Of a DNA stretch of 61,794 nucleotides, positions 27,207 to 61,794 are shown in pieces (the stretch's first letter is position 1; each line of letters opens with the position of its first letter). The stretch covers positions 1 through 61,794 of the forward strand of contig CANAUI010000005.1 of NCBI GenBank assembly GCA_947364715.1, given 5' to 3'. Below the pieces are notes generated by a model. That model did no database searches. It was not told the DNA's origin and saw only the letters and a program-made list of their open reading frames with translations. Source of the stretch: an uncultured Clostridium sp. Its GTDB lineage: Bacteria > Bacillota > Clostridia > TANB77 > CAG-508. The position numbers and the translations under genes were made by a program.

Positions 27207-27237
27207 AAAAACACATCCATATAGATGTGTTTTTTTT
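27207..27237. terminator. Bidirectional rho-independent terminator marking the low-coordinate (3') border of the accessory locus
   Basis: AAAAACACATC-catata-GATGTGTTTTTTTT. Confidence 0.6.
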
Positions 27238-28915
27238 AGAATATTGTCATTCTAAATCCTATACTCCAGTATGATTGTATACTAGTATTATTACTTCTAC
27301 TATTTACATTTAGTTCAGAAGAAGCACTACTTTCAAATGAGCCCCCTCTTATAACACATGGTTGAGAATTTATATTTGAATTTTCTAAAGTCCATTCCCA
27401 AACATTTCCTGCTAAGTCAAATATATTTTGTTTTTCAAACACACTATTTGCTCCTGTTGATAATAATATAGCTCTTACTGAAGTTTTATCATAAGGTGCT
27501 TGTAACCATTGTGCCCCATTATTTAATGAATATAATGCATTTTCATTTACAATATTGTATATACTTGGTTGATAATTTCCCCAAGATGTACTATTATTGA
27601 TTAATTGAGATTGAATAGTTCCAATTTCTGTTCCTTGTACTACTCCTTTTGCTTCTATATATTTTTGTACTAAATCCCATTGAATACCAAACATTAAACT
27701 TCCTGAATATCCATTTGTGCTAGATTTACTTGCTAATGTTTGTGCTTCACTACAAGTTACCCAATTTATTGGATATTTATTTGGTTGTGACATTGGAACT
27801 AAGTCTGTAATAGCTGTATGTCCATTTCTCTTTATATTTGTTCCTGCTTCATATCTTGAAATATAGAATCCGCCATGTTGATAAACACTTTTTAACATTT
27901 TTTGTTTTAATTCCATATATCTACTACTTGATAGTCCTAAGGTTTCATCTGAGAAATATGTATCAGTTGCAGATGTTCCATTTCTATATATTGAAGTATA
28001 TGTATGTAAATCATCTTCAATTTTTTGATATTCTTGTTCTGTAAACTCTGTTATGCTTATTCCAGCTGTCGGATATACATTTGCAAGTTTTGGTACTTCT
28101 ATCCATACATATTCATTTTCATCTAAATCTTTAATAACTAAACCTGTTTCTAATGTTGTTCCTTCTACTTGAGCAAAGTTAGAATTTGGTAAAAATGGTC
28201 TTGTACCAGGTCCATTTGGTAAAATTCCTGCTCCCCCTATAATTTCATCATTTGCTTGATATGAATCAATACTTAAAGTAATATCCATTGCTGAAATAGC
28301 ATCTGGATTATCTACAAAATATTGTCCAACTATATATCCCCACTCTGTATCTAATTCATCATTATCTCCAGCCCATCTAGCTGTAACTTTTAAATATGCA
28401 TCATCTTTTGCTGGTACTTGCAAAGAATGTTCAATATTTAGTGTAAATGGAAATCTATCTGAATCATCTATTATTATTCCTTTTGATATGAGTTCTCCTG
28501 TTTCTGGATTTGATTCTAATATTGGATTTGTTATTGTTATATAATTTTCAGTTGTAGGTTGTTCACCTTCTGTTATTAATTCATAAGAAACTCCAACAAT
28601 TGATATTGCCTGTATTCGATAGCTTAAATCTACTAATGCTTCTCCATTATTTAAAATATCTACTTTAATAACTTGCTCTTCCATTTGTGGATATAATGTT
28701 GGAAATTCTATTCCTATAGGATTTTCTTTTTCTTCTCCATCTATATAATATTCCATATCCCATGAAGCTATATGTATATCTAAATTAGAATTTAATATTT
28801 TTGTATAGGCAAACCATGCAAATGTTGTCATAATAAGGGTAAAAATAAGTGCCACAGATTTTTTAAATTCATTTTTTTTATTTGATTTTCTACGTTTACG
28901 CAATATATTACTCAT
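27236..28915 (-). CDS. Secreted TasA/camelysin-class N-terminal module fused to an FGE-sulfatase (SUMF1)-like domain
   Basis: Basic N-region, H-region, then TFAWFAY (SipW-class signal) and IASWDMEYY. The C-terminal ~230 aa carry FYISRYEAG, FGIQWDLV, GNVWEWT, RGGSF and a terminal GFR. Confidence 0.7.
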   Translation of the reverse strand: MSNILRKRRKSNKKNEFKKSVALIFTLIMTTFAWFAYTKILNSNLDIHIASWDMEYYIDGEEKENPIGIEFPTLYPQMEEQVIKVDILNNGEALVDLSYRIQAISIVGVSYELITEGEQPTTENYITITNPILESNPETGELISKGIIIDDSDRFPFTLNIEHSLQVPAKDDAYLKVTARWAGDNDELDTEWGYIVGQYFVDNPDAISAMDITLSIDSYQANDEIIGGAGILPNGPGTRPFLPNSNFAQVEGTTLETGLVIKDLDENEYVWIEVPKLANVYPTAGISITEFTEQEYQKIEDDLHTYTSIYRNGTSATDTYFSDETLGLSSSRYMELKQKMLKSVYQHGGFYISRYEAGTNIKRNGHTAITDLVPMSQPNKYPINWVTCSEAQTLASKSSTNGYSGSLMFGIQWDLVQKYIEAKGVVQGTEIGTIQSQLINNSTSWGNYQPSIYNIVNENALYSLNNGAQWLQAPYDKTSVRAILLSTGANSVFEKQNIFDLAGNVWEWTLENSNINSQPCVIRGGSFESSASSELNVNSRSNNTSIQSYWSIGFRMTIF

Positions 28916-28995
28916 ATATCTCTTGTACCCTCCTATTTCTTCATTTGTATATTCCTATTTTACACCATTTTTATAATTAGTACAATATAATATAA

Positions 28996-29044
28996 TAAAA
29001 AAACCATAGTTACCAAATTATATTTTTTTGGTAATTATGGTTTT
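28996..29044 (-). terminator. Strong rho-independent terminator after the putative major subunit gene
   Basis: Minus-strand sense: AAACCATAATTACCAA-loop-TTGGTAACTATGGTTT followed by TTTTT. Confidence 0.65.
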
Positions 29045-29088
29045 AATTAATATATATATAATTCAAATTTATTTATTAATTTATGGAA

Positions 29089-30351
29089 TTAATTTCCTCC
29101 TACCTCATCAGTTGCTGAACCTGGTTTGCTTAATCCTACATCAATTGTTAATGCACCACCTAGTGAAGCATAGTTGATACAGTCAACATCTTGACCTTCT
29201 AGCCATACATACATTCTCATATGAATATATTTACCTGGAGCTACTGAGAAGTCAGATGTTCCATCTTCAGCACTTTGTAATTGTATTGGGTCTGCTCCTA
29301 TACCTCTATTAGATGTTTGGTTTGTATATTGTCTTTTTAATCCATTTGCTGTTGCTCCTGTATCCCAATTATATATATCATCTATAGTTCCCTTTGTTAC
29401 AGAAGCTCCTGTTAAAGCATATGTAGGTATAGCACTATCTGCTGTAAATCTGTTTGTTGCTGGTATAGTAAATTCTGTTCTATCTGCATTTGAGAATGTT
29501 ACTTTATTATTGTTTTGTAATATGTAATTAACATGAGCAGCATATTTTGTTATTGCTGTACTAATATCTCCTTCTTGTGCACCACTTGCATTTGGTTCCC
29601 AAATAGCTACATCTGATATCTTACGAGCATCACCAGTAGTTGCAGCTAAGATTTGGTCTTGTGTTGGTGTTTTACTAACTAATGTGTTATCTTCTAAGTC
29701 AGGATCTTCATCATAAATAGCAAATGCTACTCTTAATGTATTTTGTAAACCTGTTGATTCTTTTGTAGTATCATTTAATACTATTGCTGAATTTCCTTCA
29801 AGTTGAAGTATGTCAGCTATATTTCCATCAATTGAAGTTTGAGCAGATGAGTTTTGTAAGAAGAAATCAATTGCATAATATCCTGCATTACTATCAGCAA
29901 CAAGTTTTGCAATAGTATTTAATTTCTTTCCTCCCTCAATTTCTCCTCTATACATATTGAAATCACTTAATCCAATACCTTCCCCAGTTTGTGCTGTTGT
30001 AGAAACTGGTAATAATTCACTTGGTACCAAGTTTGTACGTCCAGCATAAGGTTTTGCTAATGATCTCATTTGATCTGGGTCAGTAAGACCTAAGTCAGCA
30101 TTTGTTTGTCTAAAATACTCTATTGCATTATTTGATAAATCAATTTCATTTGCCCAGTTTAAAGCATCTAATGAAATTTGTAGACCTTCTGCTACATTTA
30201 CTCTACCTTCTAATCCACCTAATGTTACGTTTCTCTGTGTAGAAAACCATGCATATGTTGATACAATCAATAAGATTGCTGTAAATGCTACTAATAAAAT
30301 TAATGCATTTAATTTTTTTCTTGAGTTTCTTTTAATATTTTCTTCTCTCAT
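29089..30351 (-). CDS. SipW-signal (TYAWFS) secreted protein; probable major TasA/BsaA-like fibre subunit
   Basis: KKLNALILLVAFTAILLIVSTYAWFSTQ, matching the T[FY]A[YW]F[SN] signal class of TasA/CalY. RBS AAGGAG. Consensus promoter upstream of its two-gene unit and a strong terminator downstream. Confidence 0.7.
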   Translation of the reverse strand: MREENIKRNSRKKLNALILLVAFTAILLIVSTYAWFSTQRNVTLGGLEGRVNVAEGLQISLDALNWANEIDLSNNAIEYFRQTNADLGLTDPDQMRSLAKPYAGRTNLVPSELLPVSTTAQTGEGIGLSDFNMYRGEIEGGKKLNTIAKLVADSNAGYYAIDFFLQNSSAQTSIDGNIADILQLEGNSAIVLNDTTKESTGLQNTLRVAFAIYDEDPDLEDNTLVSKTPTQDQILAATTGDARKISDVAIWEPNASGAQEGDISTAITKYAAHVNYILQNNNKVTFSNADRTEFTIPATNRFTADSAIPTYALTGASVTKGTIDDIYNWDTGATANGLKRQYTNQTSNRGIGADPIQLQSAEDGTSDFSVAPGKYIHMRMYVWLEGQDVDCINYASLGGALTIDVGLSKPGSATDEVGGN

Positions 30352-30407
30352 TTTTTTCTCCTTTTCTTTTTTTAAATAAATTTATATATATAAGCTTATA
30401 AACAATT

Positions 30408-31205
30408 TTATCTTTCATCTTGTGGTAGTTCATCTTCTTGCAATATGTGTTCTTCTGTAAGAGTCATATGCATTTTAATTTCTCCACCTATCAAATCATC
30501 TAAACATTCTGGGTCATCTCCCTCTACCCAAACTACAACTGTCCATTTATCAATATCACCTACTTTGAAGTTTTCTGTTAATTCTAACATAACAGTATCT
30601 TCATCTTTAAATGCTGTTGTTTCAGGCTCAGGTTTTCCTGTTTGTCTATTATTTTTTGCATAAACGATTTTTTCACCATTTTTAAAAACCATTACTCTAA
30701 TTGCTTCATCTACATTTTTTACAACATCATCTATTTTTATGGTTGTCCAATAATTTATAACATCTTGTCCCATATTTTCTGCATAAAATGTGTATGCTAT
30801 GTAATTTCTACCATTATGTGAGCCATTTCCTTCATTATCTATGTTTTCTGGTAACCAATTTATAGATATATCTGTAAAAAATTCAATGTCATCTGACCTT
30901 AAAAATGTTCTTGTATATTTATTTTCAGGCTCTTCATATATAACTAGCCCACTTTCTCTTCCATATTCACTATCTAGTGTTACTGTAAAATTTTCTCCTT
31001 TATAAAATATGGATAATACAATATATACATTAATTACAAGTAATATAATAAGTATTAAAAATATTTCAAAGGCAATTCGTCTTTTATTTTTTCTTTTTTC
31101 CTTTTTTGCTTTTTTTTCTAATTTTTGCCCTAATGTTGTTTCATTAATTTGTTCTTCTAGTGTTGGTGCATTTTGTAATTGTATATTTGTTTCTTCATTT
31201 GCCAT
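30408..31205 (-). CDS. TM-anchored paralog of the fibre subunit (TapA-like anchor/nucleator candidate)
   Basis: Lys-rich cytoplasmic N-terminus, one TM helix, no YAWF cleavage motif. C-terminal VVVWVEGDDPECLDDLIGGEIKM aligns with MYVWLEGQDVDCINYASLGGALTI of the 29089-30351 product. Confidence 0.5.
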   Translation of the reverse strand: MANEETNIQLQNAPTLEEQINETTLGQKLEKKAKKEKRKNKRRIAFEIFLILIILLVINVYIVLSIFYKGENFTVTLDSEYGRESGLVIYEEPENKYTRTFLRSDDIEFFTDISINWLPENIDNEGNGSHNGRNYIAYTFYAENMGQDVINYWTTIKIDDVVKNVDEAIRVMVFKNGEKIVYAKNNRQTGKPEPETTAFKDEDTVMLELTENFKVGDIDKWTVVVWVEGDDPECLDDLIGGEIKMHMTLTEEHILQEDELPQDER

Positions 31206-31254
31206 AATTTCACCTAGTTCCCTTAAAATATCTTTTTCAACATTTTACATTGAA

Positions 31255-31283
31255 ATTATACTTAATCTTTTATTTTTTGTCAA
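31255..31283 (-). promoter_or_regulatory. Consensus sigma-A promoter
   Basis: Minus-strand TTGACA (31278-31283), exactly 17 nt spacer, TATAAT (31255-31260). About 50 nt upstream of the ATG at 31205. Confidence 0.7.
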
Positions 31284-31292
31284 CGAATTTGT

Positions 31293-31321
31293 TGTTACAT
31301 TTATGTTACAATTTTGTTACA
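31293..31321 (-). promoter_or_regulatory. Three direct TGTAACA boxes phased at 11 bp, immediately upstream of the -35
   Basis: Plus-strand tgttaca at 31293-31299, 31304-31310 and 31315-31321. The spacing and TTAACA-like core resemble OmpR/PhoB-family response-regulator sites. Confidence 0.5.
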
Positions 31322-31346
31322 TTTTTCCAGTTTTTTTATCATTTTT

Positions 31347-32045
31347 TTATGTATTTGACCTTATCATTGAGCTTGTTATTTTTACAGTTATTTCTATTGC
31401 TTTAGAAGGATTATTATTTTGATTTTGATAATATTCATAAGCATCTTTTCCAAATCTTGTATCTAATATGTCTTTTGCTAAATTTTCATCTTCTGTTCCA
31501 GTTCCTTGATAATCCCAACTAGATTTAAATTTGAAAGTTGCTCCAGACATTGGAGTTGTTGTATCATCTACATATTCTCCATCTAATCTAGTTCTATCAT
31601 AAGTATATTCTATTTTAAAAGGATATTTTGTATCATCTGCAAATATATTTACTGTATTCCCTTCAGTATGAATTATATTATTTTCTTCTAATTGGTCTAA
31701 TATTTCTCTACCAAAAATTTTTACAGAGGTTAACTCATAATTTATGCTTGTACTTGTTGTACTCATATTATATATGCGTACAATGTCTTCTCTATCAGGC
31801 ATTCCTGGATATAATTCATCTATTGTAAATGTAACATTTTCATCTAATACTTCTTTATCATCTACATAATATCTAATATCCCAAGGTGTTACATCAGCTT
31901 CTAATCCTTGAAGGTCAACTGGCGAATTTGCATTAAACCATGCATATGTATTTATTATTAATATTACAGAAAATGTCAAAATCAATAAAATTCTAAATGT
32001 CATACTTTGTTTTTTGACTCGTCTAAGTTCACGTAATATATTCAT
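31347..32045 (-). CDS. SipW-signal (TYAWFN) secreted TasA-like protein
   Basis: FRILLILTFSVILIINTYAWFNANSP then VTPWDIRYY. 232 aa. RBS GGAGG. Confidence 0.65.
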   Translation of the reverse strand: MNILRELRRVKKQSMTFRILLILTFSVILIINTYAWFNANSPVDLQGLEADVTPWDIRYYVDDKEVLDENVTFTIDELYPGMPDREDIVRIYNMSTTSTSINYELTSVKIFGREILDQLEENNIIHTEGNTVNIFADDTKYPFKIEYTYDRTRLDGEYVDDTTTPMSGATFKFKSSWDYQGTGTEDENLAKDILDTRFGKDAYEYYQNQNNNPSKAIEITVKITSSMIRSNT

Positions 32046-32105
32046 AATACCTCCATTCTATCTTTTGTTTTTCCCTTCTATTTCTTTTTTACTTTTATCT
32101 TCTAA

Positions 32106-32822
32106 TTAAGTGTTATCCTCATCTTCTATATCTTCATCTATATATTCCTCAAATTCTTCTATGTCTTCTTCAACTTCTTCCATATCTTCATCTATTTCTT
32201 CGTCTATTTCTTCTTCATAATTTTCTTCATAAATATCTTCTTCTAATTCATCATATGTATTGGCAATTTTTCTTACTTTATGTTTTTTTGCTTTTTTTGG
32301 TGTATTAAATGCTACAAATACATTTAATACTAAAACAATAATTATAAAAAATACTGAATATATGTTAGTAGCTAAATCATATAATATTGTTAACAGAGCA
32401 GATTTATATTTTACAATACCATATATTTGTTCTTCTCTAATGTTAGGGTCTTCAAAACTGTCACTTTGTAAACCTTTTGCATGAAAAATTAAATCTCCAT
32501 TTTCTTCTTTATCAATTCCAATAACATTATGCATGATAACTCTGTCACCTAAATATACAATATCATCTCCAATTTTAATATCTTTAGGAGATATTTGTTT
32601 ACTTATAACAACTTCTCCAACTTGATATTCTGGCTCCATACTTCCTGTAATAACTCTAAAAATTCTATATCCACCTATTGATTTATTACTATTGCTTACT
32701 TTTTGTAAAACAATTACTAATGTCAAAAGTAAAGCTATTATTACAAGTACTTGATACAATATTACAAATATGACTTTTATTATTTTTTTTGGATTAATTT
32801 TTGGTCCATCATCTTTACTCAT
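32106..32822 (-). CDS. SipW-type (S26B) signal peptidase paralog 5, with long acidic C-terminal tail
   Basis: TGSMEPEY (Ser motif), IMHNVIG (His), AKGLQSDSFEDP in place of KGDNN. C-terminal TM then a ~55-aa D/E-rich tail. Confidence 0.75.
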   Translation of the reverse strand: MSKDDGPKINPKKIIKVIFVILYQVLVIIALLLTLVIVLQKVSNSNKSIGGYRIFRVITGSMEPEYQVGEVVISKQISPKDIKIGDDIVYLGDRVIMHNVIGIDKEENGDLIFHAKGLQSDSFEDPNIREEQIYGIVKYKSALLTILYDLATNIYSVFFIIIVLVLNVFVAFNTPKKAKKHKVRKIANTYDELEEDIYEENYEEEIDEEIDEDMEEVEEDIEEFEEYIDEDIEDEDNT

Positions 32823-32825
32823 AAT

Positions 32826-33446
32826 TTACTCCTCTACTTTATAATTATCTCTCAATTTCTTTATTTCATATTTTTTCCTTTTGATTTTTCTATTATTTAT
32901 CACATTTTCTCTAAAGTTAGCTAAAATACATATAATTACAATTAGAATAAATATATTTATAAATCCTGTTACATTTTGTATGTAATTAACTATTTTTCCT
33001 ATTTTAGGAATAACATATACCACTTTACCAAATATATCTTGTGTATTTACTGACTCTATATCTTCTACTTTATTATTATCCCCCTTAGTAATAAATTGTT
33101 TCTCATTTTTGTTTTTTACAATTTTTGAAATTCTATGTGATATTATTCTATCATCTTGCTTAAAAGTTATAATATCTCCTTTTTGTAATTCTTCATAATA
33201 ATAACTTTTTACAATTGCTAAATCATCTTTATAAAATGTTGGTTCCATACTTTCTGAAACTATATTAAACATATATATTCCAAAAATATGTGTTTTTTCT
33301 TCTATTGTTAACATTAAATTAACAATAAAAAGGAAGATTAAACTAATTAGTATAATAAATTTTATTATTTTTTTAGTTCTTTTTTTATTTTTTATTTTAT
33401 GAGAGATTTTTTTAACATCATATTCCAATTTTGTTCTCAGCTCCAT
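32826..33446 (-). CDS. sipW: SipW-type signal peptidase paralog 4 (canonical motifs)
   Basis: SESMEPTF, ISHRI, TKGDNNKVED. N- and C-terminal TM helices. Stop lies 3 nt before the next paralog's start. Confidence 0.85.
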   Translation of the reverse strand: MELRTKLEYDVKKISHKIKNKKRTKKIIKFIILISLIFLFIVNLMLTIEEKTHIFGIYMFNIVSESMEPTFYKDDLAIVKSYYYEELQKGDIITFKQDDRIISHRISKIVKNKNEKQFITKGDNNKVEDIESVNTQDIFGKVVYVIPKIGKIVNYIQNVTGFINIFILIVIICILANFRENVINNRKIKRKKYEIKKLRDNYKVEE

Positions 33447-33463
33447 AATTTTCTTTTGCAGTG

Positions 33464-35083
33464 TTATTTTTTTAACATTTCTTTTACACTTATAATATAT
33501 TCTAAATCTTTAACAGAAAATTTACTTTTTTGAATATTATTATAATTGTTTATAATTTTTACTTTTCTAATTAAATCTTCTATACTATCTTCTTCAAAAT
33601 TTTCTTTTGAAATTTGCATTCCTAATAGTTTATATTTATCTTTAATTATAATTGATAATTCTTTTGTATCACTTATTTTTACATGATTGATAACTGTGAA
33701 ATCAGAAAAATTAATAAATTTTCTAATTTTTTTAGCATTTTCTCCAATCTCTTTGTCTGTTATATCTTCATTATGTTTTATCATTGCTTTAGCCATATAT
33801 CCATAATAACTACTTGCAAATTTTAATACATCAAATAATGATGATGTTTCATCTAAGTGTTCAAGTATTTTTTGTTTTATAATTTCTTCATCTAATTCCA
33901 TATATTTTTTCTTTAAGTCTAAAACTAAATTATTTCTTTGTAAAATAGAAATATTATCTTTCTTTCCATTTGATTTTTTTCTATCAAAAAATAATTTATT
34001 TGGTTTATCAATTTTAGAATTTAATTTAAATATTTCTATTTGTAATTTTTTTATTTCTTCTTGTATTAACTCATATTGTGTTTTTTTGACTTTTTTATCT
34101 TTATTTGCTTGATTATTTTTTAATAATTCTTGTCTTATTTGTAATACTTCTTCTACTAAAAATTTATATTCCAAATATTTTGCATATTCTTCTAAATTAG
34201 TATTTAATTTATAAATGTTTTCATTTATTTCATTTTTTTCAATATCTGATAAATCTTCCACATCTTTATCTATTAATTCTATATAGATTTTTTTATAATT
34301 TTCTTCTTTATAATCATTTATATTTAAGCTACCTGTGTAAAATTTATCAAGAATATTTTTGTTGTCTATATCTTCTATTTTATTCTTTTTTTTGATTAAT
34401 TCTGCCTTTTTATCAGCAACACCTTCTACTGTTAAAGAAAGATTTCTTAAAATCTCTTGTGCTTTTTCATTATAAAATTTGTCTATTTGTTTTTCATATT
34501 TATCATAAATATATCTTATATTTACATATAAATGTGATACTACATCTGAACATGCCCAATATACTTTTTCAAACTGATTTTTTACAGCTTCTGAATTTAT
34601 ATCTCCATTATAGGCTTCTTTTAATAAGACTTCCATATATTTTTTTGAATATTCACTTATACAAAAATCTTCTGCTGTTAATTTTATTCCTACTTTTTCA
34701 AATTGTTTAATACTAAAAATCAGTTCTTTGTTTAATCTTTCTAAGTTACTTTTATAATAACCATTTACATTATATATAGTACGGTCTAACTCCATTTTTT
34801 CAAATGAAGAACGTATATCTGTATTTTTTTCTGCAATATTATATTGCAATATTTCTTGTTCTATTTGAGGAATCTCTACATTTTCTTCTACTGTTGTTAG
34901 TTCATTATATCTATTTTCTATTTCTTCTAATAATTTTTGATTTAAGTTTTCATATTTTTCAATCATGTCATTTATTGTTTTTGATAATGTTTTGATTGCC
35001 TTTATACCATTTCTTGGTAATACAGAAATAACTTCTTTATCTGTTGTTATTTGTTTTTCTATATTTTCTACTAACTCTTTCAC
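33464..35083 (-). CDS. Cytoplasmic coiled-coil protein of unknown function (539 aa)
   Basis: No signal or TM segment. K/E/L-rich heptad-like text throughout. The GTG start overlaps the stop of the upstream 45-aa ORF (TCGTGA). Confidence 0.5.
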   Translation of the reverse strand: MKELVENIEKQITTDKEVISVLPRNGIKAIKTLSKTINDMIEKYENLNQKLLEEIENRYNELTTVEENVEIPQIEQEILQYNIAEKNTDIRSSFEKMELDRTIYNVNGYYKSNLERLNKELIFSIKQFEKVGIKLTAEDFCISEYSKKYMEVLLKEAYNGDINSEAVKNQFEKVYWACSDVVSHLYVNIRYIYDKYEKQIDKFYNEKAQEILRNLSLTVEGVADKKAELIKKKNKIEDIDNKNILDKFYTGSLNINDYKEENYKKIYIELIDKDVEDLSDIEKNEINENIYKLNTNLEEYAKYLEYKFLVEEVLQIRQELLKNNQANKDKKVKKTQYELIQEEIKKLQIEIFKLNSKIDKPNKLFFDRKKSNGKKDNISILQRNNLVLDLKKKYMELDEEIIKQKILEHLDETSSLFDVLKFASSYYGYMAKAMIKHNEDITDKEIGENAKKIRKFINFSDFTVINHVKISDTKELSIIIKDKYKLLGMQISKENFEEDSIEDLIRKVKIINNYNNIQKSKFSVKDLEYIISVKEMLKK

Positions 35084-35217
35084 GAATTTTCCTCCTCTAG
35101 TTTTTTAACTGTTTCATATTCTCCATTTAAAAATTTTAAAAAGCTTTCTACTTGTTTTTTAGTATCTAACAATTCACCATTTTCTAAATCAGATGTTTTT
35201 ATATTTTTTAATTCCAC
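35080..35217 (-). CDS. 45-aa ORF translationally coupled to the coiled-coil protein gene
   Basis: RBS GAGGTGA 5 nt before the GTG at 35217. VELKNIKTSDLENGELLDTKKQVESFLKFLNGEYETVKKLEEENS. Its stop overlaps the next start. Confidence 0.35.
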   Translation of the reverse strand: MELKNIKTSDLENGELLDTKKQVESFLKFLNGEYETVKKLEEENS

Positions 35218-35243
35218 AATGCTCACCTCTTTTTTTATCTTTT

Positions 35244-35906
35244 TTAAGTTGTTGTTTCTTCTTCTGGTAGTATATATTGTGTAAATGTCATCATTGCTTT
35301 ATATTTTAAAGTAGTATGTAAATTATCTTCTTGTTGTTCTCCTCTAAATTGTGTATCAGCTTTATTATCCATACTATTTTCTTCACCATCATTCCATCTA
35401 AATAAGATTCTATATTCTCTTTTCTTTTCTCCTACACTATTTACTTCATCTATTGGATTAATAATACCTTTTATTTCTGAAGTTTGATTTGTTTCTATTA
35501 TAGTCTTTGTTCCATCAACTATATCCCATATCTCGTATCCATAAATCTCAAAATCTTCTAATGGTGTTTCATTTAATTGTTCTATAGAAAATTCATATTC
35601 AAAAGTCACATCTACATCTGTATAATCAATTAACATTTCGAAATATCCAGTTTGCCCTGGTACTAATATATCAGGATTTATATTATCACTTCTTGTAAAA
35701 ATTGGCTCTATAACTTCATTTAGTGTTTCTGTATCATGTATAACCATATCATTTACTTTAACTAACCATCTTTTGATATTAGTATTATATGTAGTATCAA
35801 CTTGTTCAAAATATCTTGCATAGGTTTTTTGTATAAAAAAGATAGTAATAATTAAAGAGATTAAACATAATATTTGAATAATTTTAATCTTATTTTTTTC
35901 TTTCAT
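35244..35906 (-). CDS. Secreted protein with class-2 SipW-like signal (TYARY)
   Basis: IIQILCLISLIITIFFIQKTYARYFEQ then RWLVKVND. C-terminal FRWNDGEENSMDN motif is shared with the other cargo proteins. Confidence 0.55.
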   Translation of the reverse strand: MKEKNKIKIIQILCLISLIITIFFIQKTYARYFEQVDTTYNTNIKRWLVKVNDMVIHDTETLNEVIEPIFTRSDNINPDILVPGQTGYFEMLIDYTDVDVTFEYEFSIEQLNETPLEDFEIYGYEIWDIVDGTKTIIETNQTSEIKGIINPIDEVNSVGEKKREYRILFRWNDGEENSMDNKADTQFRGEQQEDNLHTTLKYKAMMTFTQYILPEEETTT

Positions 35907-35928
35907 TAATTTTTCCTTTCTATCTTTT

Positions 35929-36612
35929 TCATTTTTTTCTTCTAAAAATTCTAAAGGCTACATATATTGTTAATGGCAATATTCCACAAAAATAGAAAAT
36001 ATATTTATTATTTAGTAACATACAAATTAATGATAAAATATACATTTTTGTTTGAACAACACCATTAATTTGCTCTGCTTTTATAACAGGGTCTTTTGTA
36101 GTCCCAATGGCAATTCCTTGTGTTTGAAAGCTTTTTTGACCATTTACTTCTTTTATATCTATCACTCTATGTGTAACAAGCTTTCCTTGCATTGCTCCTA
36201 CTTCTCCTTGATATGTTACATCATCACCAATTTGAATTTTATTTGGGTCTACTTCTTTAACAAGTATAACATCACCAATTTGATATTTAGGAATCATACT
36301 TCCTGTTTGTACTCTAAATACCCTAAATCCTAAAAATGATTCTTCATTATTTGTTACTTTTTGTACTACTATGATTATAGAAATAAATATGACAATACAT
36401 GTTAATATTTGGGTAAATATTTTCCATATAATTTTTAAACCTTTACTAGCAAATCTTCCTTTTCTTTTTTGTTCTGCATTTTTGGTATTTTTTTGTTGAT
36501 TATTTTTTATTTTGTCTTCACTTTTTTCAGTAACTTTTTTATTACTTTTTTCCTCTTTGTTTATAATATTGTTACTTTCTTTTTCTTCTCTTTTGTCATT
36601 GATTTTTTTCAT
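35929..36612 (-). CDS. SipW-type signal peptidase paralog 3, with Lys-rich N-terminal extension
   Basis: TGSMIPKY, VTHRVI, QGIAIGTTKDP. About 60-aa K/E/N-rich cytoplasmic N-terminus. The start codon abuts the stop of the upstream gene (36612/36613). Confidence 0.75.
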   Translation of the reverse strand: MKKINDKREEKESNNIINKEEKSNKKVTEKSEDKIKNNQQKNTKNAEQKRKGRFASKGLKIIWKIFTQILTCIVIFISIIIVVQKVTNNEESFLGFRVFRVQTGSMIPKYQIGDVILVKEVDPNKIQIGDDVTYQGEVGAMQGKLVTHRVIDIKEVNGQKSFQTQGIAIGTTKDPVIKAEQINGVVQTKMYILSLICMLLNNKYIFYFCGILPLTIYVAFRIFRRKK

Positions 36613-37734: not shown

Positions 37735-37745
37735 TTTCTCCTCCG

Positions 37746-37915: not shown

Positions 37916-37932
37916 TTTTGGAAATTTATCAA

Positions 37933-39486: not shown

Positions 39487-39601
39487 GTTTTATTTCTCCT
39501 GTTTCTTTATATTGTTTTTTCCTATTGTCTTTGATTTATTTTTTGCTATTTATCTTATGTTTTTTTATTACACTACATTTTTTGTTTTAAGTGCTTTATT
39601 T

Positions 39602-42450: not shown

Positions 42451-42453
42451 TTA

Positions 42454-51100: not shown

Positions 51101-54100
51101 TTTATATCTGGTACTTCTAAGTTGCTATTTTCTAAATCTAAGAAAGTATCTTGACCTTTTATTGTAAAGTGTATTGTTCCATTTGTTTCAAATTCTGAAG
51201 TATCTGTATTAATATATTTCCAAACTGGCTTTTTATTGTCTAAGTCAACAAATATATCTGTTGCCTCATTTGTATGTCCTTCTGTATCACTAATTTTACC
51301 AGCTGGTATACTTATTTTTAATTTTTTAAATTCTTCTTCAAATTCGTCAAGTTTAACAATAAAATCATAACCATATTGTGTTCTAACTGGTGTTATTGTA
51401 ATTGGTAAATCTGTTCTTTGGATATATTGATTATCTCTATTTAGTTCATATATAGAAATATCTTCTGCTAATATTTTTGTATTAAAGTCATAAAATCTAT
51501 CTGTACCTGAGATTGTTACTGTTGCATATCTTTCAGAATAACTTATAAATTTCTCTTTTAAATACAATTTTGGATTAATAAAGTCTGCTCTAATATAGTT
51601 ATTTTCATCATTACCATCATCATTATCTACTATTATTTTTGTTTCAATGTTCGCATTTCCTGATGTATCTTTTACTTTATTTTCTTCAATTACAAATTCT
51701 ATTTTACCACTATGTCTTCTAAATACTTCATTTTCTAAGTTTTCATTTAATTCAAAACCAGATAATTTTAAAGTATATCTTATACCATTTCCAGTTCCAT
51801 CTGTTATGTCTGAACTTGTTAATTCTTTTGTTAAAGTATTTGTTACATCCATTTCATCAACAAGTATTTGTTTAATATCATCAATAGTTAAGATATCACT
51901 TTCTAAGAAGTTTGTATCTACTACATCAAATATAATTGTTACTTGTTTATTTTCTTGGTCAATAATTGGGTTTATTCCATCTTGATATTTATATTTTATT
52001 GTTGGTTTTATAAAGTCTACTATGTTATTTCTAAATGCTGTATATTTTGGATTGTTTGCATTATCTCCAATATCTGTTTCAACCCAATTTGGATTTCCAA
52101 CAGGAATTTTTGTTACTATATTTCCAATTCCAGATGTATCTTTAATAGTATTTTCTGAAATTTCCATTGTAACTGCACCATCATAGTTTCCGAAATTTCC
52201 TAATGTTATTTCATATCCTACATTTGCACCATTAAGTTCTGCTGGGTCTGTTATTCTAGTTATTTGTTTTGTAATTGTTGTAATAGGTGTATTAGGATTT
52301 TGACTGTTGTCTACATATATATTAATATTATTTGTTGTTAACATATCTTTTAAGAAGTAATCATCTTGTCCTAATATTTTAACTGTTACAGTTCCTGTTT
52401 CTTCATCTCTATTTCTTGTTATACTGCTTGTAGAATATTTCCATGTAGGTCTTGTAAAGTCTACTATACTTTGTTTAAATGCTGTGTATTCTCCATTTAC
52501 ATCTCCTGGCTCTATCCATGTTGAATTTCCTACTAAAAGTTCTGTTTCTTTATTTGTATTTCCATATCTGTCAATAATTACTCCTCTTGGAATAATTATA
52601 CTTGTTATACCTTGATTGTCTTCAAAATTACTTAATGTAATTTGATATGTAATAGAAGTTGCATCTCTACTTACTTGTGAAACTTGTTTTATAATATTAT
52701 CTGGGTATACTATTTCTCCATTAGCTTTTACAACTTTGACTCTCATATTTGAAATACTTTCTACATCTTGTAATGTTCCTTGAGCTAAGTATTTATCTGA
52801 TGCTCTAATTCTAATTGATACACTTCCTGTTTCATTTTCTAAATTTCTATTAATTCCATTACTTGAGTTTAAAATACTTAAATTGTCTTGTGTTTTTTCA
52901 ATTAATGGGTCTATTACGTCTACTATTATTGGATTATCTGTATCATCTCCATCATCATAATCTAAAGTAATTGTTGTTGCTATATTTTTGTTTCCTGATG
53001 TATCATCTACTTTTCCTTCTGCAAATATAAAGTCTACTGCACCACTATAATCTAGGTATCTTTGTCCTTCATTATATACTAATTCAAAGTTTGATATAAC
53101 AAAAGTATATTCTGTTCCATTAGGTATTTGTCTTGATGTTACAGTTGTATTTAACTGTTCTGTTAAATCTGTTCCTGCTACTTTGATTTTGATGTTTTGT
53201 TTATTCATAGTGCCATCAGGATTTATGATTATATCTTCTCTAATATATTTGTCTGTTACTGTAAACTTAACTGTTAATGTTTTTGCAATATGGTTAATAT
53301 CTGGATTTTCTTCATTTTCAACATCTGAATATGTATAACGAATAGCTGGTTTTATAAAGTCTACAATATTATTTCTAAATGCTGTATAGATTGGATTTTC
53401 TGCATCATCATTTTCTTCTACCCATTCTGGATTTCCTACTGGAATTTCTGTTTCTATATTCATGTTTCCACTTGTATCTGTAATAGTTCCTGCATCTAAT
53501 ACTACTTTTGTAGCACCACTTAGTTCTTCATAATTACCTAATACAAGTTTATATGCAATACCAATGTTTTCAATTCCTTTTGTTCTTGCTTGTTCTAATA
53601 TGTTTGTATATTCTTCACTTGATTGGTCTACTTCTGTTAAGGATTTTGAGATTGTTGTAACTTCATTATTTGGTGTTTCACTATCTGTTAGATATACTTT
53701 TATTTTACCTGTTGTTAATGTATTTTCTTTATAGTATTTGTCTGTTCCAAGTATAGTAACTGTTACTGTTTCGCTTTCTCTATCAATACTACTTGTTAGA
53801 TATTTCCATACAGGATTTACTACGTCTACAATAATTGGTTCATCATGTTCTGGGTGTTCTTCATTTTCTGGCTCGTCAATTCCTAATGTAATAGTTTTTG
53901 CTGAATTTTGGTTTCCTGATGTATCTGTTACAATATTTGCTGGGAAACCTAATGACATTGGCCCACTGTATCCTTCTCCATCTGTTGTTTCTAATCCTTC
54001 TACTAATAGTTCATATCTTTCTCCAACTTTTTTACTAATACCATTTATTGTATAATAAATATCTCCATTTGTTTTATATGTAATGTCTCCTTCTACTACT

Positions 54101-57100
54101 TCTTGGTCTAAAGTTACTTTTGTTAGTGTTTTTGTAATATTTGCATCTTCTGCTAAATTTGTTTCATCAACTTTAACTGTTATAAGGTCATTTGTTATTG
54201 TTGTACTTTCGAAATATTTATCTGTTACATCAAATATTATTCTTACATTTTTTTGGTTATAATCAATTGTTGTATTTGAAGTTTCATATGTAAATTCAGG
54301 TTTGATATAGTCTGTAAACATAGTTCCATCTGTGTTTTCATTAGTTGTTTGGTCTTTTAATTCAATATTAATCCATTCTCCTGCTTCATTATCTATTGCT
54401 TGCATATTTTTATTTCCATAGTCATCTATTAAAGTTCCTTTTGTTGGTTGAATAGAAATATTACCACTCCATTCTTTGAAGTTCTTTCCGTTTTTACGTA
54501 ATGCTTCTTCAAAGTTTGATAATGTAATTGTATATTGGACTGATTTCTTTCCTGTTGTTTGGTCAATTGTTTCTATTACATTATTTACTGATTTTGTAAT
54601 TTCTTCTGCTAACTCTCCATCAATATATATATTTAATAGTTTTGCTTGTTCTTCTGTTAATATTCCTTCTGGTAGTTGACCATTTGCATTACTTGTATAT
54701 ATATTTGTATCAACTTGTCCTTTTATTACAATACTTATTTCTTGTTCTTCTTCATCTATTGTACTTGATATTTTTTTCCATTCTGGTTTGTATTTTGGAT
54801 TTATAGTTCCATTTGTAAATTCTATTGTTTGTGTTGAATCTGTATTTAGTTTAAAGTTTGTTCTGTTATTGTAAATTGATTCTGGTGCTTGGATTACTAT
54901 TTCTCCTGGTTTACCTGTCCTATTAAATATATCACCATTGTCTGATGCTATATTTGTAAATGCTGGTCCTAAGTCTAAATTTGTCATTGATTTAGCTCCT
55001 GCAATATTAAACATATCTACCATGTTTGTTACATTAGTTGTATCAAATTTTTCTCCTAAATCTAAACTTGTTAGTGTTTCATATCCTACTCCTTCAAACA
55101 TCCTAGCCATGTTTGTTACATTGCTTGTATCAAATTTATTTCCTAAATTTAAACTTGTCATTGCTTCTTTACCAGCTGACCAAAACATACCACTCATATC
55201 TGTTACATTGCTTGTATCAAATTTTTCTCCTAAATCTAAACTTGTTAAGGCTGTTGTAGACCTAAACATACAACTCATGTTTGTTACATTTCTTGTGTCA
55301 AATTTATCTTTTAAATTTAAACTTGTCATTAAACATCCATCAAACATATACATCATATTTGTTACATTAGTTGTGTCAAATTTATCCCCTAAGTCTAAAT
55401 TTGTTTTAATACCTGTACCAGCAAACATATTATTCATATATGTTACATTAGTTGTATCAAATTTGTCTCCTAAGTCTAAACTTGTCATTTTAGTCCATCC
55501 TGTAGCACCAAACATACCACTCATATCTATTACATTACTTGTATCAAATTTATCCCCTAAGTCTAAATTTGTCATTTTAGTGTATCCTGTACCACTAAAC
55601 ATCTTACTCATGTTTGTTGCTTTTCTTGTATCAAAGTTTTCTCTTAAGTCTAAACTTGTCATTGCATTTCTACCTGTGCTATTAAACATCGCTATCATGT
55701 TTGTTATATTACTTGTATTTAATAAATTTAAATTTGTTATGGTTTGTGTTGATGTACAATTTCTTGAACTTCCTATATAACTAAACAATTCAGTTGAATT
55801 TACATTTCCAAATATCTCATTATCACTTCCAATATATACTTTTACAGTTTCATTTTCATTTTGTTCATACCAAGCAATAATTGTTTTATCTCCTTGTGCT
55901 GATACATCCCATGCTGTGTTATCAATATATTGGTTTTCTGCAATATCATATACATCTTCTGGTATGTTATCTACAAATGTAACATTATCTATATTTTGTC
56001 TTTGTATATTAGTATTTCCTAAGAAAGGTCCTGTTACATTGTATTCTGTTTCTTCTGCTAAGATTTCCTTTGCTTCTCCTGTAGTTTCTTTTAATGTGTT
56101 ATATACAATAATGTCTGTTTCTTTATTTCCATTTCCTGATTCATCTAATATTAGTCCTTCTGGTATTCTTACTTTTATTTGATTTACTGCTATATTAATT
56201 CCTGTAAGTTTTAATGTATATTGTAGTCCATATTGTACAGTTCTATTTACTCCATTTACAACTCTTTGTTCATTTAATGGTGTACTTGTTAATTGTTTTG
56301 TAATTCCTGCTGTTGTTTCTGTTCCATTTACTAAGATTTTTATATTTTGATTTGTCAATGTACTATTAGCAAAATACTTATCTGTTGCTTTAAATTGTAT
56401 TTCTGCACTTGTATTTACTGTATCTACTTTTGATGTTATTTTTTCTATTAGTGGGTCTACTACATCAACTATTTCTTCATTATTTGGATTTCCTCCTGGT
56501 AAGTTTATTCCTGATGTAATTGTTGTTGCATTATTTGTATTTCCTTCTGTATCTGTAATTTTGTCTCTTGGAATTGCTACTGTTACAACACCACTATAAT
56601 CTAAGTAATTATCTCCTTCTTTTATTTGTAATTGTTCTAAATTAGATAATGTTAATAGATATCTTTTTCCTATTATTTTGCTTTCTCCATTTACTGTTTT
56701 TATTATGTCTTCTGTTCGTAATCCCTTATTTACTTCTGTCCAGTCTGGCTCTTTTCCATCTATTCTTATTGTTAAATCTTCTATTGCTAATGTTCCTGAT
56801 TCATAGAATTTATCTATTACATCAAATTCCATTGTAAATTCTTTTCCTTCATGGTTTATATCTGATGTACTAAATCTATATTTTACTTCTGGTTTTATAA
56901 AGTCTATAAAATCTGTGATAGTTGTTTTTTGTTCATTAATAATATTTCCTTTCATATCTTTTGATGCACTAGGATTTATTTTAACTTCTAAGTTACCACT
57001 AAATTCTCTATATTCTCTTCTAGAATTTATAAATTCCACATCTGTTTCTATAAAATCACTAAGTTCTAATGTGTATTGATGTCCTAAAACTTGCACTTCT

Positions 57101-60100
57101 CCATTAACATTTGCTTTAATTTCTACTGTATTAACAATATTTTTTGTTATTTTATTATCAATTTGTAAACCATCTATCCATACTGTTAATTCATCTACTG
57201 TAACTGTATCTGTTGGGTCATAGTTTTTATCTGTTACATTAAAGATAATTGTTTCTTTTCCAAGTGTTTTATCTTTATTTTTTTGCACATCATACACTTC
57301 TGGTCCTGTTCCATCAAGATAGTCAATTTCAAAAGTTTGCTCATTTGAAGTGTTTTGATTCTCATCTGTTATTACTCCTCCTGCAATTTTTAATACAACA
57401 TATCCACCATTTTCGTTTCTATATTTTGCTGTTCCGCCCACAATAGGCTCTACTGGTGTAAATTCAGTATATCCATCTTGTTCTGGTATTATATTTGTTA
57501 AACTTAATGTATACTCATATTCTTCATTTGGAATAATTTCTACTGGTCCACTTAATACTTTTCCAACTTCTGTTGATTGTTGTTTATTAACAATAACAGT
57601 TATATCATCTTCTGTTAAATTAAAAATACTGTTTTCTTCATTTAAGAATTTGTCTTTTATTCTTAATTTTACAATTCCTTGTTCTCTATCAATGTCTCCT
57701 AATGTCCATACTGGGTCTACAACGTCAACTATTTCTTTGTCTCCTTCTCCTCCTCCTGGTTCATCTTTTCCAATAGTAATAGATTTTGCATTGCTTAAAT
57801 TTCCAGATTTATCTTTTATTGTTCCTTCTGCAAATGATAATGTCATATATCCACTATATGTGTAACCATCTCCAACTCCATTTTCATCTTCTTGGTCTAA
57901 TCCTGTAATAACTAATTGATATCTTTCTCCTATTTTTGTGTTTTCTACACCTTCTACAGTTGTAGTTAAATCTTCTATTTTTGTTAATTGTTTGTTAATG
58001 GCATTATTTAGTTCTGTTACATCATAATCATCTATTTGTACCATTATTTGGCTACCATCTAAATTAGATAAAGTTGTACTTTCGAAGAATTTGTCTACTA
58101 CATCAAATACTATTGTTACTTTTTCTTCATCTCCATGAACAATTTCTGTATTTGAACTATAATATGTGAATTCTGGAGCTATAAAGTCTGCAAATATAGA
58201 ATTTTCTGTATTTTTGTCTACTTTTGTTTCGTTTTTTATTTGATGATTTGCTCTACTTCCATCATCTGCTAATTCCATATTTTTGTTTCCATAAGCTATT
58301 CTTTTTCCGTTTTCATCTGCTGGTCCTGTGGTATCTGTTAATGTCTTTTCTGCTACTTCTATTCTTATATTTCCACTCCACTCTTTATAGTCTTTTCCAG
58401 TTCTTCTTGTTACTTCTTCAAAGTTTGATAGTGTTAAATCTTTTAATACATCTTTTGCTCCTGTTCTTGGGTTTGCTGTTTGTACTGATGTTCCTATTTC
58501 TTTTGTTATAATGTCTGTTATTTCTGTATTTTCTATAAATACCTTTATATCATTTACTTCTAATGAACTTATTACATCACTTATGTATTCTTCTGCATTT
58601 ACTTCTGTGTTTGTTGTTCCTCTTAATGTGATTTTTAGCTTTGGATTATTTTCTTCTGTTTCATCTATCTCTGTTCCTTCTTTTATCCATTCTGTTCTGT
58701 ATTTTGGATTTATAGTTCCATTTGTAAATCCTATTGTTTGTGTTGAGCCTGTATTTAGTTTAAAGTTTGTTCTGTTATTGTAAATTGATTCTGGTGCTTG
58801 AATTACAATTTCTCCTTTTTTACCTAAATCATTAAATATCATCATTCTTTCTGTTGCTATTTTTGTAAATGCTGGTCCTAAATCTAGATTTGTGATTGAT
58901 GTGCTTCCTGTACTCTCAAACATCATTGTCATTCTTTCTACATTACTTGTATTAAATTTGTCTCCTAAATCTAAATTTGTCATTGATGATGCCATTCCTA
59001 CACCACTGAACATTGCTGTCATATTTCTTACATTGCTTGTGTCAAATTTATCCCCTAAGTCTAAACTTATTATATTTTCCAAATTAGCAAACATATATCC
59101 CATATCTGTTACATTACTTGTGTCAAATTTGTCTCCTAAGTACAAACTTGTCATTGATTCCATACCTGTAGCATTAAACATATTACTCATATTGGTTACA
59201 TTGCTTGTATCAAATTTATCTCCTAAGTCTAAACTTGTCATTGATGTATGACCTGTATGCCAAAACATATTATTCATATCTGTTACATTACTTGTATCAA
59301 ATTTATCTCCTAAGTTTAAACTTGTCATTGATGTTTGACCTGTAGCTAAAAACATGAATTCCATATTTGTTACATTACTTGTGTCAAATTTATCTTTTAA
59401 GTCTAAACTTGTCATTGTGTCATAACCTGTATTATTAAACATATTGCTCATATTTATTACATTAGTTGTATCAAATTTGTCTCCTAAGTTTAAGCTTGTC
59501 ATATTACTATGACCTGTATTCTCAAACATATTGCTCATATTTATTACATTACTTGTATCAAAGTTTTCTCCTAAGTCTAAACTTGTCATTGCATTTGTAC
59601 CTGTATTAGCAAACATATAGCTCATGTTTGTTACCTTACTAATATTTAATAACTCTATATTAGTTATTGTCTCTATTGCTGTACAATTTTCTGAATCTCC
59701 TATACAACTAAATAATTCACTTGAATCTATATTTCCAAATATCTCATTATCACTTCCAATATATACTTTTACAGTTCCATTTGAATTTTGTTCATACCAA
59801 GCAATAATTGAATTATCTTGTTGTGCTGATACATCCCATGCTGTGTTATCAATATATTGGTTTTCTGCAACATCATATACATCTTCTGGTATGTTATCTA
59901 CAAATGTAACATTATCTATGTTTTGTCTTTGTATATTTGTATTTCCTAAGAAAGGTCCTTCTTTATCATAATTTGGTATTCCTCCTATTGTTTTTAATGC
60001 TTCTTTATATGTCTTTTTTAATGTATTATACACAATAATGTCTGTTTGTTTATTTCTATTTCCTGCTGTATCTAATACTACTCCTTCTGGTATTCTTACT

Positions 60101-61794: not shown

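Follow-up and report, generated by a model that had tools for sequence, protein, structure and literature searches.

The closest described relative of the locus reported here is CoCoPALM, a large clade of McrB GTPases named by Bell, Makarova, Wolf, and Koonin (eLife 2024) in one paragraph, with the analysis deferred (PMC11090510). The features given for it are an NxD signature, usually followed by D or E, a fusion to an FtsB-like transmembrane (TM) segment and coiled coil, an adjacent McrC homolog, usually with a coiled coil, genes of the signal peptidase family, and a predicted link to pilus assembly (PMC11090510). We found no later paper on CoCoPALM in the literature searched, and the supplements of PMC11090510 in text form hold nothing on CoCoPALM, on peptidases, or on one named accession. 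CoCoPALM is named, yet how the class works is unpublished, so that structural or genetic studies of it would break new ground. Here we analyzed a locus that very probably belongs to this class. It lies in a 61,794-nucleotide (nt) stretch of DNA from an uncultured Clostridium sp. (contig CANAUI010000005.1; the whole stretch is hereafter called the window) and runs from position 27236 to the end. Its genes are labeled g1 (27236-28915) to g19 (44621-44962), plus a giant open reading frame (ORF).

Two further groups of surface fibers offer a comparison. SipW-TasA systems (B. subtilis tapA-sipW-tasA, B. cereus sipW-tasA-calY, and C. perfringens sipW-bsaABC) have a dedicated signal peptidase, and the dependence of TasA on SipW is attributed to the aromatic residue at P2' (PMC10269814). 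In structure 8aur, the mature TasA chain starts at A28 of ...GGGTWA↓AFNDIK (the arrow marks a cut, here and below). Subunits of archaeal strand-donation fibers (AbpA, cannulae, and threads) leave the cell via Sec or Tat, are processed by signal peptidase I, and polymerize through N-terminal donor strands. The archaeal bundling pilus is reported to have no dedicated peptidase gene near its operon, and a generic signal peptidase appears to be used (PMC9245690). Cannulae are described as polymerizing without chaperones.

We favor, with moderate confidence, the reading that this locus encodes a fiber- or adhesin-assembly machine, GTPase assisted or GTPase regulated, and is an expanded CoCoPALM, with five peptidases and eight paralogs. 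This reading is supported by the gene set and the giant gene, which stay together across deep divergence. Also moderately probable, in our judgment, is the origin that it implies: a domesticated McrBC-type GTPase module paired with a signal-peptidase-dependent surface fiber or adhesin pathway. The likeness to CoCoPALM centers on g11, an McrB-like GTPase with the NxD signature (N358-N-D360-D361), a TM segment, and a coiled coil. Adjoining it is g10, with its DUF2357 domain; five S26B peptidase genes lie in the window, and a peptidase gene lies next to the GTPase gene in the distant relatives L085, L087, L088, and L089. The TM and heptad architecture of the FtsB-like fusion is present in g11, but Pfam shows no FtsB or DivIC homology of its N terminus at E values up to 10. 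Compared with the CoCoPALM paragraph, our analysis adds a superfamily of pilin-like proteins, a peptidase paralog that is inactive, g12 as a partner, linkage to a giant adhesin, and the spread in small-genome gut Bacillota. An earlier reading of this DNA from its sequence only had not recognized the system as described; it is indeed uncharacterized, but its class already bore a name from that single paragraph (PMC11090510).

The protein-coding genes on which the argument rests are as follows.

27236-28915, minus strand: g1, pilin-like N-terminal domain (motif TFA↓WF) and a C-terminal domain resembling FGE-sulfatase
29089-30351, minus strand: g2, probable major structural subunit (TYA↓WF)
30408-31205, minus strand: g3, predicted uncleaved, membrane-anchored g2 paralog (basic cytoplasmic tail, TM 40-71, no cleavage motif)
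31347-32045, minus strand: g4, pilin-like (TYA↓WF), g1 paralog (blastp 2.6e-10) with a profile link to g15
32106-32822, minus strand: g5, S26B signal peptidase, g9 paralog (39% identity) with an acidic tail
32826-33446, minus strand: g6, canonical S26B signal peptidase, extra copy; Ser, His, and GDNN...D box present
33464-35083, minus strand: g7, long cytoplasmic helical protein with coiled-coil-like segments
35244-35906, minus strand: g8, pilin-like (TYA↓RY), universal core member
35929-36612, minus strand: g9, divergent-subfamily S26B signal peptidase
36613-37755, minus strand: g10, McrC-like partner (DUF2357), directly downstream of g11
37933-39486, minus strand: g11, membrane-tethered McrB-type GTPase (conserved N-terminal segment, TM, coiled coil, AAA+ GTPase domain)
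39602-40648, minus strand: g12, cytoplasmic helical protein, directly upstream of the GTPase gene
40733-41317, minus strand: g13, pilin-like (TLS↓RY), with profile links to g8, g15, g4, and g19
41295-41819, minus strand: g14, canonical S26B signal peptidase
41806-42450, minus strand: g15, pilin-like (MYA↓LY), g8 paralog (blastp 2.75e-16)
42454-43479, minus strand: g16, S26B-like pseudo-peptidase with an acidic, then Thr/Lys-rich, repeat tail
44092-44962, minus strand: g19/g18, pilin-like (VFG↓RYVYY), frameshift-split into ORFs 44621-44962 and 44092-44367 (three-frame reading)
45121-61794, minus strand: giant surface protein of at least 5,557 amino acids (aa); the ORF is open at the window end and the N terminus lies beyond

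From 27236 onward, all sizeable ORFs of the window lie on the minus strand, with intergenic gaps of -23 to 253 nt, including a gap of 0 at the 36612/36613 junction and gene overlaps of 23 nt (41295-41317) and 14 nt (41806-41819). The ORF map and gap values thus bear out a single minus-strand block of overlapping and abutting genes, as the sequence-only reading had described it. That reading had also proposed an LRR surface protein of more than 5,550 aa, which agrees with a giant ORF of at least 5,557 aa containing six DUF285 stretches, and it had named an assembly chimera as the artifact to watch for. Gene order is identical in independent metagenome-assembled genomes (MAGs; L002-L009 and L011), which rules out a chimera. 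The left flank in the window carries DUF4364, lactate dehydrogenase (Ldh), RNase R, the GerA germination operon, and BipA, and the co-linear contig L001 has SecG between Ldh and RNase R. The setting is chromosomal. Because housekeeping genes flank the system and no gene in it is better conserved than that of the GTPase, we rejected a mobile or defense island. The GC content of the window is 26%.

We surveyed the spread of the system with one genome per species. Relatives of g11 occur in at least 539 species-level genomes, all of them MAGs, variously labeled Clostridia, Bacilli, Tenericutes, Mycoplasma, and Erysipelotrichaceae. Two closed carrier chromosomes measure 1.26 and 1.55 Mb, and the 80 loci examined among these genomes have GC contents of 24-37%; the carriers are small, low-GC, uncultured Bacillota. 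Homologs of g11 number at least 8,000 at E <= 0.001, of which the best 120 are all at least 73% identical, and one comes from a named MAG, 'Clostridium sp. 28_12'. Across the 80 loci the shared order is g16 g15 g14 g13 g19 g12 g11 g10 g9 g4 (g8) g3 g2, sometimes followed by g7 g6, and in distant loci g8 lies on the strand opposite to the rest.

Presence was counted in 37 distant loci with full flanks. All 37 have g8, g10, and g11, with g10 directly downstream of g11, and all have g9 or g5 and g4 or g1. Both g12 and g19 were found in 36/37, g2 and g16 in 33/37, g3 in 32/37, and the g13-g14-g15 module in 23-24/37. Median identity to the window in these loci is 60% for g11, 51% for g3, the second best-conserved gene, and 26-41% for the other core genes. 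The sequence-only reading had suggested neighborhood conservation as a check, and the gene set does stay together, both in the 80 loci and in the distant ones.

The association reaches further still. An exhaustive g11 search gave 735 clusters at E <= 1e-30, and relatives that span the full length (TM, coiled coil, and GTPase) occur at identities as low as 34%, all with N-x-D-(D/E/Q). Variants of the signature at 34-44% identity are NNDD, NHDE, NSDQ, and NKDE, with Asp at +2 invariant. Four of these relatives, on short contigs, have the following gene content.

L085 (g11 identity 44%, GC 49%): g2-like, S26B, McrB, EAL-domain protein, McrC-like
L087 (g11 identity 40%, GC 57%): g2-like (RIWLEGQDPRC), S26B, McrB, McrC
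L088 (g11 identity 34%, GC 49%): g3-like, g2-like (AFA↓WF ... VWLEGKDGDC), McrB, S26B
L089 (g11 identity 44%, GC 45%): S26B, McrB, McrC (756 aa), S26B

From these gene orders, the deep core of the system is a pilin-like protein, an S26B peptidase, a TM-McrB, and an McrC. In L085 (3396-4373) and L086 (3255-4232), a gene for an EAL-domain protein of the c-di-GMP phosphodiesterase family stands between the McrB-like and McrC-like genes, which hints at possible c-di-GMP control of the system in that lineage. We considered whether g12 is a degenerate EAL domain and rejected it: the L085 EAL protein gave no blastp match to g12, and g12 has no Pfam match.

Seven products (g1, g2, g4, g8, g13, g15, and g19) have a basic stretch and a hydrophobic helix, with a motif of the form (S/T)(Y/F)(A/G/S)↓(W/K/R/L)(F/Y) immediately after. 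The motif fits the -3/-1 rule for signal peptidase I, places an aromatic residue at P2', and is kept in every cargo family across the 80 loci. By blastp, the cargo falls into two paralogy groups, g1-g4-g2 and g8-g15-g13. Family profiles built from the 80 loci link g8 to g15 (99.9%) and g13 (97.3%), g2 to g4 (97.2%), g13 to g15 (96.1%), g19 (95.7%), and g4 (95.3%), and g4 to g15 (95.2% over 174 columns), and the C-terminal W-x-EG-x-D-x-x-C region of g2 to g3 (91.2%). On these links, the cargo families form one superfamily of paralogous, predicted secreted proteins. Neither Pfam nor NCBIfam has a model for any of the pilin-like families.

Two members of the superfamily depart from the simple form. 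The g1 protein is paralogous to g4 over residues 3-218, and its residues 497-556 score 23.2 bits against PF03781, just under the 23.3 cutoff; L002 has a 559-aa g1 ortholog in the same position. The g19 gene is intact, encoding 285-352 aa, in L011 and all distant loci. Five related species (L005-L009) share the window's split, which in each case comes after ...DKITLRN. The split could be an inherited pseudogene, a programmed frameshift, or a real division into two genes.

The candidate major subunit is g2. It has at least 1,800 homologs, with no Pfam domain in any, and it is the fastest-evolving gene among close relatives, at 41-71% identity versus 89-94% for the GTPase. Conservation peaks at residues 31-40, 51-60, and 381-390 around a variable middle, with the cleavage motif and the C-terminal W-x-EG-x-D strand among the conserved parts, and this pattern fits an exposed polymer subunit. 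The g3 protein is interpreted as an anchored paralog because it has a cytoplasmic tail and TM helix and no cleavage motif, and its C-terminal WVEGDDPEC region aligns with WLEGQDVDC of g2. This W-x-E-G-x-D-x-x-C block (g2 residues 381-391, g3 residues 226-234) is the best-conserved part of both families (block identity, 0.81), and the W-x-EG-x-D motif persists in relatives of 45-57% GC as WLEGQDPRC, WLEGKDGDC, and WIEGFDIDG. With its acidic residues and one conserved Cys, the block may bind a metal or form a contact between subunits.

Expression signals frame these two genes.

31255-31283 (read 31283-31255), minus strand: sigma-70-type promoter (TTGACA, 17 nt, TATAAT) upstream of g3-g2
28996-29044, minus strand: intrinsic terminator after g2, with a 17-bp stem and U-run (fold z -3.25)

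The promoter is the only 12/12 consensus match within 27000-46000 and lies in the 141-nt gap upstream of g3, which is followed by g2 after 56 nt. Thus g3-g2 forms a strongly signaled two-gene unit, with its promoter upstream of g3 and its terminator after g2. Both signals had earlier been assigned to g2 alone (29089-30351); the terminator is real, but the 12/12 promoter lies upstream of g3 (30408-31205).

The giant ORF matches DUF285 (BspA-type LRR) in six stretches (E 1.5e-56). Within the gene, 54967-55718 and 58876-59640 each hold about nine copies of an 87-nt (29-aa) tandem repeat at 73-76% identity; the 29-aa repeats are presumably the DUF285/LRR units. In most of the 80 loci, homologs of its C-terminal ~1,500 aa directly adjoin the system and point the same way; some lie upstream of it, as the giant gene does in the window, and others come after g2 or g7. 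Their identity is 24-45% in distant loci and 59-78% in close relatives. Where the N termini of giant homologs are in view, they show a signal helix and a related motif (TYFKTYSD, TYFNTYSD, AFTYGALKTS, or SYALFSS). The in-window part of the giant protein has no LPXTG-type motif and no hydrophobic C-terminal stretch. The giant protein is a probable adhesin cargo or tip of the system.

We compared the peptidases with TIGR02228 (cutoff, 51.85 bits) and with the Bacillus SipW equivalog (cutoff, 190 bits). TIGR02228 is passed by g5 (58.8 bits), g6 (106.7), g9 (71.3), and g14 (70.8); g16 reaches 38 bits, below the cutoff, and matches the SipW model at E 3.7e-11, far under the SipW cutoff. All five have an N-terminal and a C-terminal hydrophobic segment. 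Scores against the equivalog are 87 bits or less, and because none reaches 190 bits, the window peptidases are classed as other than SipW orthologs. All 49 members of the g14 family have Ser58, His94, and Asp109, and 48/49 have Asp115. The g9 family keeps Ser105, His148, and Asp174 in 73/73, with G-I-A-N in place of the GDNN box. In the g16 family, the catalytic Ser is found in 6/65 and there is no conserved His. These patterns of catalytic-residue conservation point to a conserved system with two active peptidase subfamilies and one pseudo-peptidase, to which the window's clade adds g5 and g6 as extra copies. The five S26B paralogs counted by the sequence-only reading are all present, but one of them, g16, is a pseudo-enzyme whose family has lost the catalytic Ser and His.

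Two of these proteins carry unusual tails. After the C-terminal TM, g16 has a 36-nt tandem repeat of 7.6 copies (42518-42790), and family members elsewhere are mostly shorter (median, 176 aa). The Glu/Asp tail of g5, also after the C-terminal TM, is very acidic, with 12-27-nt repeats at 32122-32248.

The g11 protein matches E. coli McrB (6hz4) in the Protein Data Bank (PDB) at E 4.6e-5 and has Walker A (GISGTGKTS) and Walker B (ILDEMN) motifs in addition to its signature. Its hydrophobic TM segment at ~50-84 is followed by a basic stretch and a heptad-compatible segment at 92-119; the TM segment and the McrB match agree with the membrane AAA+ NTPase of the McrB family proposed earlier. It is the best-conserved gene of the system, at 89-94% identity in close relatives. 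There is no Pfam AAA_5 match, and the PADLOC candidate-defense model PDC-M26A matches at E 1.3e-36, so automated defense annotation could mislabel this housekeeping-like gene as a defense gene.

In g10, DUF2357 scores 29.1 bits against a cutoff of 23.3 over residues 48-167. Pfam, NCBIfam, and PDB searches of its C-terminal half gave no further domain and no PD-(D/E)xK, HEPN, or other nuclease, and there was no McrC match in the PDB. A crude scan gives a heptad segment at 298-329, the one indication of a coiled coil. The true start of g10 is most likely the ATG at 37734, which is preceded by a ribosome-binding site (GGAGGAG); the L002 ortholog has 373 aa. No TM segment and no Pfam (E up to 10) or NCBIfam match was found in g12, which also stands beside the GTPase gene in another relative, L090. 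The g7 protein likewise has no TM segment or family match and has many heptad-compatible segments in the crude scan; it was found in 15/37 distant loci, possibly an undercount from the flank limit.

The cargo had been called TasA class, which our tests do not bear out. No cargo protein reaches the TIGR04088 cutoff of 19: g2 scores 12.8 bits (E 0.11) and the other six have no match, with TasA itself at 38 bits as positive control. Peptidase_M73, BsaA, TIGR04089, and camelysin models gave no match to the cargo or to 22 g8-family members (Pfam and NCBIfam, E up to 10). Alignment of the seven family profiles with TasA by hhalign, using a TasA sequence verified against 8aur, gave at best E 0.035 and a probability of 1.5%, and the g2 and g8 alignments likewise showed nothing significant. 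Searches of the PDB with the g2 sequence and with the g2 and g8 family profiles gave no matches. The AlphaFold model of g2 is confident (pLDDT 85.1, pTM 0.83), and Foldseek found no fold match for it in the PDB at E <= 0.001. The AF2 model of g8 is a beta-sandwich of low confidence (pLDDT 68.3). Its top Foldseek matches are generic jelly-rolls, with weak matches to the TasA fiber 8aur in 4th place (E 1.4e-3, TM 0.31) and to the archaeal bundling pilus 7ueg in 12th (E 9e-3). The likeness of the predicted g8 fold to the TasA fiber is no more than suggestive.

Thus the cargo fails the tests for membership in the TasA family, and TasA class is not established. What stands of the earlier count of seven signal-bearing proteins and one TM-anchored paralog is the helix and motif of the seven and the anchored g3. 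It is reasonable, by analogy, to suppose that the cargo works like TasA, because the system has a dedicated S26B peptidase, an aromatic residue at P2', and a new N terminus that is disordered in the monomer models. The resemblance to SipW-TasA systems includes dedicated S26B peptidases that have Ser/His and two TM segments, cargo in which the signal helix is followed at once by a small P1 residue and a P2' aromatic (TWA↓AF in TasA, TYA↓WF here), a major subunit with accessory paralogs, and the jelly-roll-like g8 with its weak TasA-fiber match. The differences are that the cargo here fails TIGR04088, Peptidase_M73, and the TasA profile, that the peptidases fall below the SipW equivalog cutoff, and that TasA systems have 3-5 genes rather than ~20 and no NTPase, McrC-like protein, pseudo-peptidase, or giant adhesin. 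The broader proposal of a multi-subunit, NTP-assisted fiber or adhesin machine keeps its footing in the conserved gene set and the adjacent giant gene, but not in the TasA assignment.

Other known systems resemble the locus in part. Like McrBC and CoCoNuT systems, it has a McrB-family AAA+ GTPase bearing both Walker motifs and the signature Asn, and a DUF2357 partner directly downstream; the NxD branch and coiled coil are shared with CoCoNuT. Unlike in those systems, a TM anchor in g11 replaces the DNA- or RNA-binding N-terminal domain, no PD-(D/E)xK, HEPN, or other nuclease was detected in the partner or its neighbors here, and the conservation and setting are those of a core cellular function. 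The archaeal fibers are approached by the weak match of the g8 model to AbpA (7ueg); no sequence relationship of the window cargo to them was detected. Sortase-assembled pili were ruled out because their defining parts are absent: no [LIS]PX[TAS]G motif occurs in the cluster proteins or in the in-window giant part, and Pfam and NCBIfam scans, at the E-value thresholds applied, gave no sortase match. Type IV pili and type II secretion were excluded on the same basis, with no prepilin peptidase or PilB-type ATPase family among the 19 products and with the cargo motif after the hydrophobic helix, the wrong side for a class III signal, which precedes it.

Several smaller features accompany the system.

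37735-37932, minus strand: structured g11-g10 spacer, with an array of the 9-mer GTTGCCAAA and a near-perfect hairpin of ~40 bp that ends at the ribosome-binding site
35080-35226, minus strand: 48-aa ORF overlapping the g7 start by 4 nt
43522-43962, minus strand: g17, small TM-anchored protein (TM 6-38) with a weak FxLYD match (E 4.7e-4)

All 6 exact copies of GTTGCCAAA are inside the spacer, versus 0.27 expected, and the spacer folds with a minimum free energy of -73.7 kcal/mol (z -8.9). This array and hairpin are found only in the window's close clade; different inserts, also strongly structured, occupy the spacer in the close relatives L002, L005, L006, and L011, and in most other loci the g11-g10 gap is 0-30 nt. 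The spacer may determine how much McrB is expressed relative to McrC, or it may be a mobile element, small and palindromic. The 48-aa ORF may be a real small protein of the system; a 45-aa ORF occurs at the same place in L002-L004. The g17 gene is lineage specific, present in close relatives and in 0/37 distant loci. Scans of the window for tRNA genes and Rfam families were empty. Outside the cluster, a 701-aa ORF at 9608-11713 (plus strand) has no Pfam match at E <= 0.001.

We propose the following model for the assembly machine. Precursors would enter the membrane via Sec and be cut after the small residue of the motif, leaving an aromatic at P2', the feature that makes TasA SipW dependent. 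The new N-terminal strands would then link subunits, probably by strand donation. In such a fiber, g2 would be the abundant, antigenically variable major subunit, g3 the uncleaved membrane base or anchor, and g4/g1, g8, g13, g15, and g19 minor or adaptor subunits, and the giant protein would be carried or displayed on it. At the cytoplasmic face of the membrane, a g11 hexamer, with g10 as a plug and joined by g12 (and g7), could use its six TM/coiled-coil stalks to relay a GTP-dependent movement or a checkpoint signal to the site of processing and assembly, in the service of assembly, gating, or retraction. That g11 is a true mechanical motor rather than a regulator is doubtful. We put forward only tentatively the fullest version of the model: a new filament class with subunits of unrecognized fold, archaeal-type peptidase cuts, drive from an McrBC-derived hexameric GTPase, and a giant adhesin as its load, a core trait of uncultured small-genome gut Bacillota.

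A number of points weigh against an assembly machine of this kind. The fiber has never been seen, the carriers are uncultured, and cleavage at the motif is a prediction. TasA, ABP, and cannula fibers polymerize extracellularly without NTP, which leaves the need for a motor unexplained. The confident model of g2 matches no pilin or TasA fold, the TasA, TIGR04088, and Peptidase_M73 comparisons all fail, and the FtsB/DivIC homology sought in the g11 N terminus did not appear. In L090 (721-8695), a 37%-identical TM-McrB on a short contig, with g12-like and McrC-like neighbors, directly follows phage lysis genes (DUF859, a holin, and an endolysin, probable, that has LysM-like repeats), and no peptidase is in view; either the system abuts a prophage there, or this is a subfamily with a different role. 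Some of these points would suit a system for the export, processing, and anchoring of the giant adhesin or of a surface coat, in which g2 would make up a sheet like an S-layer, or a scaffold spanning the wall, with g3 holding it, the paralogs serving as adaptors, and the GTPase gating secretion of a very large substrate. Giant proteins are adjacent in nearly all loci, and g2 is unlike known pilin folds and resembles S-layer proteins in its strong expression signals and hypervariability; the giant protein, with no LPXTG or other anchor, needs another retention device. We nevertheless consider a coat unlikely: one major and five or six minor paralogs with a conserved new N terminus is the pattern of a pilus system, the g8 fold leans toward strand-donation fiber subunits, and L087 and L088 have the four-gene core with no giant gene in view on their short contigs.

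The McrB/McrC ancestry, the PDC-M26A match of g11, and the phage lysis genes beside its L090 relative could also be taken to indicate an anti-phage or restriction-type defense module, a membrane-tethered, CoCoNuT-like McrBC set among independent SipW-type fiber operons. This is highly improbable. No nuclease or DNA-binding domain was detected, at least 539 species carry the set as a fixed part of the chromosomal core, and its linkage to peptidase and pilin-like genes persists at 34-44% identity. Moreover, g11 is the most conserved gene (~60% in distant loci; 89-94% versus 41-71% for g2 among close relatives), the reverse of the pattern of defense genes. Conservation at housekeeping level, together with the FtsB-like TM and coiled-coil architecture described by Bell et al. 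(PMC11090510), would suit an envelope, division, or spore-surface machine, in which the GTPase couples septum or spore-coat events to the deposition of surface proteins such as spore appendages. The title of TasA PDB entry 5of1, 'Spore coat-associated protein N', and the nearby GerA germination genes in the window's organism point the same way. This too is improbable, if less so than defense, as the conserved block contains no division or sporulation gene and the FtsB/DivIC relationship went undetected.

If the GTPase-assisted or GTPase-regulated assembly machine that we favor is real, it would represent a rare takeover of a defense motor, McrBC, for the construction of the cell surface. It would also be the first nucleotide-dependent assembly route for a fiber that signal peptidase I processes; no NTPase is described as taking part in assembly in the papers examined on TasA, the bundling pilus, and cannulae. 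Hundreds of species of uncultured, reduced-genome gut Bacillota have the system as a conserved core feature. In these organisms, the hypervariable major subunit and the giant adhesins would then likely be the main interface with the host, mucus, phages, or partner cells.

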